56,684 bases of DNA from an uncultured Rikenella sp. GTDB taxonomy: Bacteria; Bacteroidota; Bacteroidia; Bacteroidales; VadinHA17. The position numbers and the translations under genes are program-made. The stretch is from contig CAYYEH010000010.1 in NCBI GenBank assembly GCA_964470815.1, positions 1-56,684 on the forward strand, in the 5' to 3' direction. Shown here in pieces: positions 43,295 through 46,038 of the stretch (position 1 is the stretch's first letter; each line of letters opens with the position of its first letter). The notes under the pieces were generated by a model. It had not been told where the DNA came from, searched no databases, and worked only from the letters and a program-made list of their open reading frames with translations.

Positions 43295-44233
43295 ATGATC
43301 GGCCGGGCTCCCTTTAAGATATTTTCCTGTACCTCATCATTAAGCATTGCGGAAAAGATTGCCGACCATCTCGGTATAGAACTGGGCAAAAGCTCACTGC
43401 TGAGTTTCAGTGACGGAGAGTTTCAGCCCTGTTTTGACGAGTCGGTCAGGGGCTGTCATGTCTTTATCATCCAGTCAACCAATCCCCCCGCGGAGAACCT
43501 GATGGAACTGCTGCTGATGATTGATGCGGCAAAGAGGGCTTCAGCCTACAAGGTAAATGCGGTCATACCCTATTACGGGTATGCACGGCAGGACCGCAAG
43601 GACAGGCCCCGGGTATCACTGGGGGCAAAGCTTACGGCAGACCTGCTGACCAAGGCCGGGGTTGACCGTATCATTACCATTGATCTCCATGCTGATCAGA
43701 TCCAGGGATTCTTTGACGTGCCTGTTGACCATCTTTTCGGATCAGCGCTCTTTGCCCCGTATATCAGGAGCCTCAATCTGCCTAATCTCACCGTCTCTGC
43801 CCCTGACATGGGCGGTTCGAAGAGAGCCAATGCCTATGCACGTCACCTTCAGTGTGAGATGGTTCTCTGCTACAAGCTGCGTAAGAAGCCCAATGTTGTG
43901 GAGGAGATTTCAATCATCGGAGAGGTTGAAGGAAGGCATGTGGTTATCATTGATGACCTGGTTGACACCGCAGGCACCCTTACTTTTGCTGCCACTGTGA
44001 TGAAAGACCGCGGTGCACTGAGCGTCAGGGCAGTGGCCACACACCCGGTCCTTTCAGGAAACGCAATAGAAAAAATAGACAAATCTCCTCTCGAGGAACT
44101 GGTTGTAACTGACAGCATTCCCATGATCAGCACATCACCGAAAATCAAGGTTTTGTCAGTGGGCGAGATCTTCGCCGAAGCCATAAAAGCAGTATATACT
44201 AACACCTCTATCAGCTCGGGTTTTGTTTTCTGA
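43295..44233 (+). CDS. prs: Ribose-phosphate pyrophosphokinase
   Basis: FSDGE, PYYGYARQDRK, DLHA.QIQGFF, PDMGG, DDLVDTAGT. The -7 box TATTTTTG lies at 43250-57. Confidence 0.97.
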   Translation: MIGRAPFKIFSCTSSLSIAEKIADHLGIELGKSSLLSFSDGEFQPCFDESVRGCHVFIIQSTNPPAENLMELLLMIDAAKRASAYKVNAVIPYYGYARQDRKDRPRVSLGAKLTADLLTKAGVDRIITIDLHADQIQGFFDVPVDHLFGSALFAPYIRSLNLPNLTVSAPDMGGSKRANAYARHLQCEMVLCYKLRKKPNVVEEISIIGEVEGRHVVIIDDLVDTAGTLTFAATVMKDRGALSVRAVATHPVLSGNAIEKIDKSPLEELVVTDSIPMISTSPKIKVLSVGEIFAEAIKAVYTNTSISSGFVF

Positions 44234-44251
44234 GCTTTTTCACTATATTTG
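44222..44251 (+). promoter_or_regulatory. Housekeeping promoter for rplY-pth-hslR
   Basis: TTTG (44222-25), 18-nt spacer, TATATTTG (44244-51). Confidence 0.7.
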
Positions 44252-44282
44252 CACGCCAATTTTTTCCAACAAAACGTCAAAC

Positions 44283-44322
44283 GTGTGATGGGAGGTTATA
44301 TGGCATTAACCTTGAGTAACAC
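44283..44322 (+). promoter_or_regulatory. Candidate L25-binding leader hairpin (5S rRNA loop E mimic)
   Basis: GUGU/ACAC stem, symmetric internal loop GAUGG/GAGUA, then the GAGGUUA/UAACCUU stem. Ends 16 nt before the rplY ATG. Confidence 0.65.
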
Positions 44323-44338
44323 AACAAATTAAAGAGTG

Positions 44339-44953
44339 ATGAAAACTATTGAGATCAAAGCCGTCTCACGCGAGCATTTCGGCAAGAAGAGCACCAACAG
44401 CCTCCGGGCAGAGGGGAATGTACCATGCGTCATGTACATGGAAAAGAAGAATCTTCATTTTTATGCTCATGAGAACGCATTCCGCGGACTTGTATACACC
44501 CCAGAGGTCTACCTTGTCAGCCTCGTCGTAGATGGCAAGAGCTATAATGCAGTGATGAAGGAGATCCAGTGGCACCCGGTCACTGACAGAATCCTGCACA
44601 TTGATTTCATGCAGGTCAGCGAAGAGAAGCCGGTTACCATTGACATACCTCTTAAAATCACCGGCGAATCTGTCGGTGTCAAGGCCGGAGGCAAACTTCG
44701 CGTTAAGCGGAGAACACTGAAAGTCAAGGGGCTGACAAAACATATTCCTGATCATCTTACAATTGACATCACCAATATCGGGATCGGCCAGTCAGTGAAG
44801 ATCGGTGATCTCAACTATGAAAACCTCGAGATAATTGACAACAAGCGTGCTATGATCGTTTCTGTTGATGTCTCCAGGCTCTCTCTCAAGGAAGAAGAAA
44901 CAGCTGCTCCCGGAGCTGAAGCTGCCGCCGCCGAGGCTCCTGCTGAAGAATAA
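44339..44953 (+). CDS. rplY: 50S ribosomal protein L25/Ctc
   Basis: R...GKK....LR..G.VP.V.Y, Q.HPV.D.ILHIDF, G.S.GVK.GG, IP.....DIT. Confidence 0.97.
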   Translation: MKTIEIKAVSREHFGKKSTNSLRAEGNVPCVMYMEKKNLHFYAHENAFRGLVYTPEVYLVSLVVDGKSYNAVMKEIQWHPVTDRILHIDFMQVSEEKPVTIDIPLKITGESVGVKAGGKLRVKRRTLKVKGLTKHIPDHLTIDITNIGIGQSVKIGDLNYENLEIIDNKRAMIVSVDVSRLSLKEEETAAPGAEAAAAEAPAEE

Positions 44954-44977: not shown

Positions 44978-45586
44978 ATGAAACACCTGATCGCCGGTCT
45001 TGGCAACATAGGCGACGAGTATAGAAACACACGTCATAACGTAGGGTTTATGGTACTGGATGCCGCAGCAGCAGCATCCGGTATCACTTTTAAGGAGAGC
45101 CGTTATGGTTCTGTGGCATCGATGAGGCATAAGAATGCGGAACTGATACTGCTCAAACCCTCTACCTTCATGAACCGCAGCGGCAATGCCGTCCGCTACT
45201 GGCTGCAGAAAGAAAAAATAACCCTGGAAAACCTGCTGGTGATTACCGATGATATTGCCATCCCCACCGGCAGCATCCGTCTCAGGGCCTCGGGAAGCGC
45301 AGGTGGCCACAACGGGCTCACAAGCATAAGTGAGGTGCTTGGTACAGACCACTATTCACGCCTTCGGATAGGAATAGGCAATAACTTCCCTAAAGGGGGA
45401 CAGGTGAATTATGTCCTTGGTGAGTGGAATGCTGCAGAACTTCTGATAATGGAAAAAAGGATCCCGCTGGCCGTGGAGATGATGCTTTCATTTGCCCTCA
45501 CCGGCTGTGAGCTCACTATGACTGCATATAACCGCAAAGGCAAATACCCCGGTGATGACAGTGTTTTGCCCCCTTCAAAGCAGTGA
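44978..45586 (+). CDS. pth: Peptidyl-tRNA hydrolase
   Basis: GLGN.G.EY.NTRHNVGF, KP.TFMN.SG, GGHNGL, RLRIGIG. Confidence 0.97.
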   Translation: MKHLIAGLGNIGDEYRNTRHNVGFMVLDAAAAASGITFKESRYGSVASMRHKNAELILLKPSTFMNRSGNAVRYWLQKEKITLENLLVITDDIAIPTGSIRLRASGSAGGHNGLTSISEVLGTDHYSRLRIGIGNNFPKGGQVNYVLGEWNAAELLIMEKRIPLAVEMMLSFALTGCELTMTAYNRKGKYPGDDSVLPPSKQ

Positions 45587-45660
45587 CAGATGCCGCTCAT
45601 CCCCTCCTCCCGGGAAACCATGATGCAGTCGAGTGTCAACCTTCTGAAAAACTACACTAT

Positions 45661-46038
45661 ATGACATCTGAAAAAGGTGAAAGAATAGACAAATTCCTCT
45701 GGCATGTAAGAGTATACAAATCGCGCAGTATTGCCACGGAGGAGTGCAGGAAAGGAAGGGTCATGATCGGCGGGCAGCCTCTCAAACCGGCACAGATTGT
45801 AAGCACAGGCGCAGTTATTACTGTCAGGAAACCACCTGTTACCTATACGTATACAATAACAGACATCCCCAGGGGAAGAGTCGGCGCCCCGCTGGTGGCA
45901 TCGTTCATAACAGATCTCACACCACAGGAGGAAAAGGACAAGCTTGTGACAGGTAAAATGGCGAACGGAATCAGGCCGCGCGGCAGCGGCCGGCCGACGA
46001 AGCGGGAACGGAGAGAACTGGAAGACTTTCTTGAATAG
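45661..46038 (+). CDS. hslR: S4-domain ribosome-associated heat shock protein Hsp15
   Basis: RIDKFLW.VR.YKSRS.A, GRPTKRERR. Confidence 0.9.
   Translation: MTSEKGERIDKFLWHVRVYKSRSIATEECRKGRVMIGGQPLKPAQIVSTGAVITVRKPPVTYTYTITDIPRGRVGAPLVASFITDLTPQEEKDKLVTGKMANGIRPRGSGRPTKRERRELEDFLE

Follow-up and report, generated by a model that had tools for sequence, protein, structure and literature searches.

In E. coli, the ribosomal protein L25 represses its own translation through a hairpin present in the rplY leader (PMC4408793; PMC10931766), the L25 autoregulation in Gammaproteobacteria to which the initial annotation of the DNA studied here had referred. Like the RNA described below, this leader (RF03131; Aseev, Bylinkina & Boni 2015) is a 5' UTR hairpin before rplY, but the two RNAs are unrelated. 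The gammaproteobacterial hairpin precedes a gene for a one-domain L25 with a weak GAGA Shine-Dalgarno sequence (PMC10931766), and the hairpin of E. coli, according to the authors who studied it, does not resemble 5S rRNA loop E (PMC4408793), whereas the Bacteroidia leader goes with a two-domain L25 and no Shine-Dalgarno sequence. A 2024 review assigns the known features of bL25 control only to species with short bL25 and has no L25 leader for Bacteroidia (PMC10931766). Mimicry of rRNA is a classic principle of r-protein operators, as for S8/spc, L1, L20, S15 and L4 (cited in PMC4408793); these share with the present leader the logic of a free r-protein binding an mRNA copy of its rRNA site, and differ from it in ligand and RNA. 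The Bacteroidia L13 and S4 leaders listed in the 2020 r-leader survey of Eckert & Weinberg, which lists no L25 leader for Bacteroidia, also differ in ligand and RNA and show that this lineage has r-leaders of its own. No description of a Bacteroidia L25 leader was found in our full-text searches.

The stretch of DNA analyzed here (the window, 56,684 nt) carries on its + strand an rplY gene (44339..44953) coding for a two-domain bL25/Ctc protein of 204 aa (Pfam PF01386, Ribosomal_L25p, and PF14693, TL5_C), of which the closest solved chains are the bL25 of 9i5t and 7jil. The gene is preceded by prs and followed, 24 nt downstream and on the same strand, by pth, encoding peptidyl-tRNA hydrolase (44978..45586, PF01195), and then by an S4-domain HslR-like gene (45583..46038, PF01479). 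Homologs of the HslR-like ORF mostly align from around residue 22-34 onward, and the gene probably starts at ATG 45661, about 75 nt past pth, and not at GTG 45583, which overlaps pth. No terminator-like site was found on the + strand of the window between rplY and pth. Together with the conserved gene order, this absence suggests that whatever acts at the rplY leader could also control pth and the HslR-like gene.

The initial annotation had described a hairpin between the rplY promoter and the ATG, at 44283-44322. The 40 letters read directly from the + strand at these positions are GUGUGAUGGGAGGUUAUAUGGCAUUAACCUUGAGUAACAC, and they contain every pair that had been claimed. In the outer helix, P1, GUGU (44283..44286) pairs with ACAC (44319..44322) through G44283-C44322, U-A, G-C and U44286-A44319. 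The loop-E-like internal loop follows, with a 5' strand GAUGG (44287..44291, corresponding to 5S G72-G76, with the same bases in E. coli and Bacteroidales 5S) facing a 3' strand GAGUA (44314..44318, corresponding to 5S G100-A104, with the same bases in E. coli 5S) as G44287.A44318, A.U, U.G, G.A and G44291.G44314. Above it, the P2 strands GAGGUUA (44292..44298) and UAACCUU (44307..44313) form a conserved G.U pair, an A-U pair and the stem GGUUA/UAACC, closed by an 8-nt apical loop, UAUGGCAU (44299..44306), that varies in length and sequence across clades. The G.U and U.G pairs of this hairpin function in the sense-strand RNA only.

The hairpin lies in the 5' UTR of rplY, as judged from a promoter box found upstream of it. 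Its elements were recognized by the known consensus of Bacteroides promoters and the spacing of their -33 and -7 elements. We read directly from the sequence a Bacteroidetes-type -7 box, TAtaTTTG (44244..44251, + strand), and, 18 nt 5' of it, a -33-like TTTG (44222..44225, + strand); this putative promoter (44222-44251) would drive rplY. A TAnnTTTG box is located 25-47 nt 5' of the hairpin in eight related leaders and is visible in other upstream regions. On the other side, an A-rich spacer of 16 nt with no Shine-Dalgarno sequence (44323..44338, + strand) separates the end of the hairpin from the start codon. A terminator-like hairpin with a T-run, at the 3' end of prs (44213-44236), shares sequence with the stop codon of that gene (44231-44233) and includes the TTTG taken here as the -33 element of rplY.

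Folding energy gave a mixed picture. When the hairpin was folded by itself with RNAfold, the minimum free energy (MFE) structure was the claimed one, at -11.4 kcal/mol (z -2.9; equalled in 2/200 shuffles). Extending the single folded sequence to a context of 111 nt gave as MFE a competing structure and not the rplY-leader hairpin, so that energy alone gives the hairpin no support. The bipartite string GATGG-N(10-40)-GAGTA was found 5 times in the 56.7-kb window for 3.6 expected, and we rejected it as significant by itself. The case for the hairpin rests therefore on comparative data. The window clade also carries AAACGU twice (44272-44284 in the window), and an ACGU/ACGU mini-hairpin formed there, which is part of the 111-nt MFE, would compete with the outer P1 pairs of G44283 and U44284. 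It may be an alternative conformer of the window leader.

To compare the internal loop with its presumed model, we used the E. coli rrfH sequence, in which loop E, the known binding site of bL25/TL5, reads G72AUGGUA78/G98AGAGUA104. The in-register match of five consecutive loop E pairs (GAUGG/GAGUA) that had been proposed is borne out by this sequence: five of the seven pairs of the loop E signature (GAUGGUA/GAGAGUA) are identical in the window. Loop E with its helices IV and V has the same hairpin topology and strand order as the leader, with the same consecutive G.A, A.U, U.G, G.A and G.G; P1 occupies the place of helix V, and P2 with its loop that of helix IV and loop D. The differences are next to helix IV, where U77.A99 and A78.G98 are replaced in the window by G.U and A-U, and in Bacteroides-type leaders by N.A plus G.U. 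The flanking helices of the leader are unrelated in sequence to those of 5S, and the leader belongs to an mRNA and not to the ribosome. The leader covariance model gave no match to the 5S of E. coli, Phocaeicola and S. copri even with filters off, which confines the likeness to the internal loop (10-12 nt) and makes it a local mimicry rather than a homology.

Loop E of the same sequence is present in Bacteroidales 5S. We located 5S genes beside IMG/VR proviruses and assigned their hosts by exact flanking proteins. Those of a Phocaeicola-type contig (L096) and of Segatella copri (L092) read CCGAUGGUACUG...GGGAGAGUAGG, identical to the E. coli loop E (GAUGGUA/GAGAGUA); L096 is a piece of Bacteroidaceae chromosome with a flanking protein named for Phocaeicola vulgatus/dorei and a full 5S at 117-227. 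The search pattern required the loop E sequence, so this result shows its presence in Bacteroidales and not its degree of conservation. Leaders of other clades come closer to loop E than the window clade, in which 5/7 loop E positions are kept per strand. The S. copri leader (L130), GUGU-GAUGGCG...UAGAGUA-ACAC, compared with 5S CC-GAUGGUA...GAGAGUA-GG, keeps 5/7 and 6/7 on the two strands, and B. ovatus-type leaders (GAUGGUG/UAGAGUA) keep 6/7 loop E bases per strand. The 3' strand AGAGUA, six of the seven bases, is found in leaders whose L25 is identical to that of B. ovatus, P. massiliensis, S. copri and Paraprevotella, and some of these leaders have a U at the position of U77. The seventh loop E pair is never A.G in any leader, and in Bacteroidaceae and Prevotellaceae the match reaches at most 6/7 bases on a strand.

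The initial annotation had named no described family for this RNA, and none was found. A covariance-model scan of the + strand with Rfam 15 (4227 models, RF03131 included) gave no match at the hairpin at gathering score or E<=10. The L25-Gammaproteobacteria model RF03131 (gathering score 34.1 bits), run on 44150-44450, gave no match at E<=10; as a positive control, the E. coli rplY leader scored 46.9 bits with it. In the reverse direction, our leader model R2 did not match the E. coli rplY leader. The window leader is not a member of RF03131, and we consider it likely, from these searches and the comparisons given here, to be a new rRNA-mimicking r-protein leader. As a separate observation, the whole window has no Rfam match at gathering score, tRNA included.

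To see whether the hairpin is conserved, L25 relatives were aligned and one genome per GTDB species was scanned, retrieval being through the protein only. The resulting 80 loci, with L25 identities from 95% down to 46%, come from Bacteroidales MAGs (some labelled Rikenella/Rikenellaceae), from Marinilabiliaceae and Bacteroides luti, and from three Chlorobi-labelled MAGs. The motif was present directly 5' of the rplY start codon in 80/80 loci, or 81/81 with the window, in 54 distinct versions with the consensus GUG-Y-R-AUGG ... D-AGUA-R-CAC (80 loci). The internal loop, on whose conservation the proposal of the initial annotation had been made to depend, keeps A.U, U.G and G.A in 54/54 distinct leaders. 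On its 5' strand R, A, U and G are invariant and the fifth base is G in 53/54; on its 3' strand AGUA is invariant and is preceded by G in 45/54, with A or U in the others. The first internal pair (pair 5) is only G.A or A.A in all 54, and the fifth (pair 9) is G.G in 45/54 and otherwise G.A or G.U, once A.U. These substitutions at pairs 5 and 9 would fit the sheared and bifurcated pair families described by Leontis and Westhof. In P1 the three outer pairs G-C, U-A and G-C hold for 53/54 of the distinct leaders, the exception being an A-U swap, and the fourth varies (U-A, U.G or C-G). The whole element measures 32-60 nt; the apical stem remains paired while its sequence and its length differ among leaders, and the apical loop has 7 to >20 nt across clades. 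The hairpin is 14-17 nt from the AUG in 69/80 of these loci (16 nt in the window), and the spacer has 26-105 nt in a few clades. An apical-loop GGCA is kept throughout the window's own clade and absent from distant clades; a long-range pairing of this GGCA with a 5' GCC was considered and dropped, no covariation being seen by eye.

Covariation was scored in two alignments. The first, model-fitted, had 75 hits, 53 distinct sequences and 17 pairs; double changes were found at 7 of these pairs (55 cells), for a score of 0.245 against 0.127 in shuffled alignments, a value reached in 0/500 shuffles. Enlarging the alignment with metagenome stems (97 distinct sequences) gave 9 pairs, 125 cells and a score of 0.294 against 0.133 shuffled, again reached in 0/500. 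In the metagenome set the core is fixed by the search pattern, and only the stems and pairs 9-12 are informative. All register-slid controls had far lower scores than the true register, and register counts made without alignment from two fixed ends, found by regular expression, agreed with the model-fitted alignments. The double changes are held by P2 pairs (A-U/G-C, G-C/A-U and others). The stems covary while the block of internal mismatches is unchanged, which is the signature of a sequence-specific non-canonical module and not of a plain helix. The candidate leader RNA of the initial annotation, once aligned across rplY loci, is thus a conserved, covarying 5' UTR hairpin across Bacteroidales. 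From the weak single-sequence statistics (z -2.9) and the chance frequency of the bipartite string in the window, one could suspect a hairpin that arose by chance, or a palindrome acting at the level of DNA, for instance as the operator of a transcription factor. Either is extremely improbable, being contradicted by the 81/81 presence and the covariation: the element is conserved down to 46% L25 identity with compensatory changes. For a DNA palindrome, moreover, the invariant G.U, U.G and purine-purine mismatches would read as C.A or mismatches on the complementary strand, which destroys the symmetry.

The element is specific for rplY. The covariance models R1 and R2 gave one match per locus, always just 5' of rplY, with no further match in the rest of the 56.7-kb window and in roughly 280 kb of flanking DNA. 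A metagenome scan with the pattern CGTGYRATGG-N8-38-AGTARCAC returned at least 120 stretches. Among the 120 matches listed, 83 were followed on the same strand by an L25 gene starting up to about 70 nt away (usually <25) and 3 were ended by a contig edge. The other 34 of the 120 listed had no L25 gene and no stem and scored at most 21.7 bits, the best of them lying inside an antisense ORF. These L25-less matches (L100, L178, L209, L202 and others) were rejected as true elements and are treated as chance, since they are inside unrelated ORFs or stemless. Every covariance-model match of at least 26 bits, among the matches listed, is followed by an L25 gene or sits at the edge of a contig. As for the neighboring genes, pth is 3' of rplY in 79/80 protein-anchored loci and, among the metagenome matches listed, in 54/55 loci; the HslR-like gene is downstream in 68/80 and, among the matches listed, in 37/40, respectively. 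Among the same metagenome matches, prs is upstream in only 6/65 loci and L25 downstream in 55/55. The element accompanies rplY-pth-hslR and not the upstream prs; it therefore belongs to rplY.

Such a structured 5' UTR element might have a role independent of L25, as a stabilizer against RNases, as a standby site or enhancer for initiation without a Shine-Dalgarno sequence, or as the site of another factor, with the likeness to loop E merely reflecting a stable and recurrent RNA module. Loop-E-type modules do recur in many RNAs; the invariant P1 sequence, unlike 5S helix V, hints at a constraint beyond mimicry; and some clades have extras of their own (5'-strand repeats, outer helices) while 2/7 loop E pairs are lost. 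We nevertheless regard this explanation, including its account of the likeness, as unlikely. The element is found only before rplY, at more than 160 independent loci, and the bases that never vary in it are precisely the ones of the single rRNA site to which the encoded protein binds. If it were a general stabilizer or enhancer, it should precede other genes as well, and no such case was found in the 56.7-kb window, in the flanks of about 280 kb or among the metagenome matches listed.

Taxa were assigned to the metagenome leaders by look-ups of exact L25 protein sequences. The L25 proteins that have the leader are those of Bacteroides ovatus (in a 90% cluster that also includes B. finegoldii and B. 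caccae), Phocaeicola massiliensis, Segatella copri, Paraprevotella xylaniphila, Parabacteroides distasonis and a Muribaculaceae cluster. The element is thus present in main human-gut genera (Bacteroides, Phocaeicola, Segatella/Prevotella, Parabacteroides, Muribaculaceae). For these gut species, hairpin and AUG are separated by 3-20 nt, with the minimum of 3 nt in S. copri and 5-7 nt in some others. A phylum-wide distribution was rejected. No motif was detected, even with filters off, in six Flavobacterium rplY loci (L218-L223) from three L25 clusters, making the leader a feature of Bacteroidia and not of the whole phylum. The order prs-rplY-pth is kept in these six loci, and it follows that bL25 does not need the leader. 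Their AT-rich prs-rplY gap is just 28-55 nt, with no room for a leader, and rplY may be co-transcribed with prs there.

The existence, conservation and covariation of this RNA, its exclusive association with rplY, the identity of its internal loop with loop E and its place at the initiation region are established directly, and the leader hairpin is in our opinion probably an autoregulatory translational operator that binds L25. We infer L25 binding, the repression and the level at which it acts from these sequence comparisons. P1 and P2 would clamp the non-Watson-Crick run R.A, A.U, U.G, G.A, G.G, which would thereby copy the helix-V-proximal half and the center of bacterial 5S loop E; bL25 in excess over free 5S rRNA could then bind the leader mimic. 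Absence of a Shine-Dalgarno sequence is usual in this lineage (PMC7797042), and an mRNA of this kind would rely on its unstructured A-rich initiation region, where the ribosome loads. With only 3-20 nt left between the hairpin and the AUG, a two-domain bL25 bound there, together with the hairpin it stabilizes, would block 30S loading, rplY translation would drop, and the co-transcribed pth and HslR-like genes might respond through coupling or mRNA decay. With the hairpin at an A-rich initiation region lacking a Shine-Dalgarno sequence, and no terminator-like site found in the window between it and ATG 44339, a direct competition between the rRNA site and its mimic is the most economical reading.

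The bound leader could also act otherwise than on initiation, through mRNA decay, through Rho-dependent termination of rplY-pth-hslR, or as a chaperone or sink for L25. Such mechanisms need no intrinsic terminator, the order rplY-pth-hslR is conserved, and the spacers of 26-105 nt in a few clades make a direct occlusion less obvious. We consider them quite improbable given that, at almost every locus, a mere 3-20 nt separate the structured edge from the AUG, that no terminator-like site separates the hairpin from the ATG, and that the sole studied precedent, E. coli L25, acts on translation (PMC4408793). In the clades with a spacer of 26-29 nt, moreover, a possible outer helix would move the edge back to some 9-10 nt; only L058 has this helix in its MFE fold. 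Formed by AACAAU/AUUGUU, it would surround the hairpin in the 5' UTRs of L058, L062 and L061-L075; in L061-L075 the 5' end, UCACAC, is in addition complementary to the operator GUGUGA. In the Bacteroidaceae leaders L110, L119 and L077, the operator 5' strand is repeated about 21 nt upstream (cAUCGUGUGAU...CCACAUC directly followed by GUGUGAUGG).

Several observations weigh against an L25 operator. The window has only five of the seven loop E pairs, and the missing two are on the side that L25 also contacts in E. coli. The likeness to 5S extends over 10-12 nt only, the Flavobacterium order prs-rplY-pth exists without the element, and the competing MFE prevails in the longer context. On the first point, Lu and Steitz are said to have placed in 2000 the L25 alpha-helix in the major groove adjacent to the helix IV side of loop E. 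In E. coli, an amino group of L25 is near U80, on that same side (PMC1976436). Loop E is pseudo-symmetric about G75.A101 (PMC1976436), so that L25 could meet the kept half turned around, P1 then standing in for helix IV. Mimicry leaves unexplained the near constancy of P1 (GUG/CAC in 53/54), which is unlike helix V; as a speculation, a flipped docking might explain it.

If an L25 operator is the right explanation, the long form of bL25 gains a regulator, when control was so far known only for the short gammaproteobacterial protein, and the leader is an unusually literal case of rRNA mimicry, in which natural variation displays the minimal determinants of the L25-loop E interaction: five fixed pairs, the sixth and seventh being free. 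Taken all together, a first regulatory RNA for a two-domain (Ctc/TL5-type) bL25, in the form of an independent, Bacteroidia-only near-copy of loop E, possibly a flipped half-site mimic, in the main gut genera, is a tentative proposal that we hold as rather doubtful in its entirety; it could tie the ribosome-rescue functions of pth and the HslR-like protein to 5S rRNP assembly. The presence of the element in genetically tractable gut Bacteroides makes these ideas directly testable, and the Bacteroidia, which do not use Shine-Dalgarno-based initiation, offer a clean system for how a protein-RNA complex blocks initiation. For annotation, the leader could at once seed a new Rfam family, for which L25-Bacteroidia is a possible name.

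Finally, several IMG/VR contigs labeled as viral end in the tails of host rRNA operons (L083, 14226-14815; L092, 1653-1754 and 13225-14341; L096, 117-227). The tail on L083 comprises a 23S end, two tRNAs and a tandem pair of 5S genes, and the S. copri element L092, which carries an integrase and an RT-17 RNA (RF03020), is located by a tRNA next to a 5S gene.
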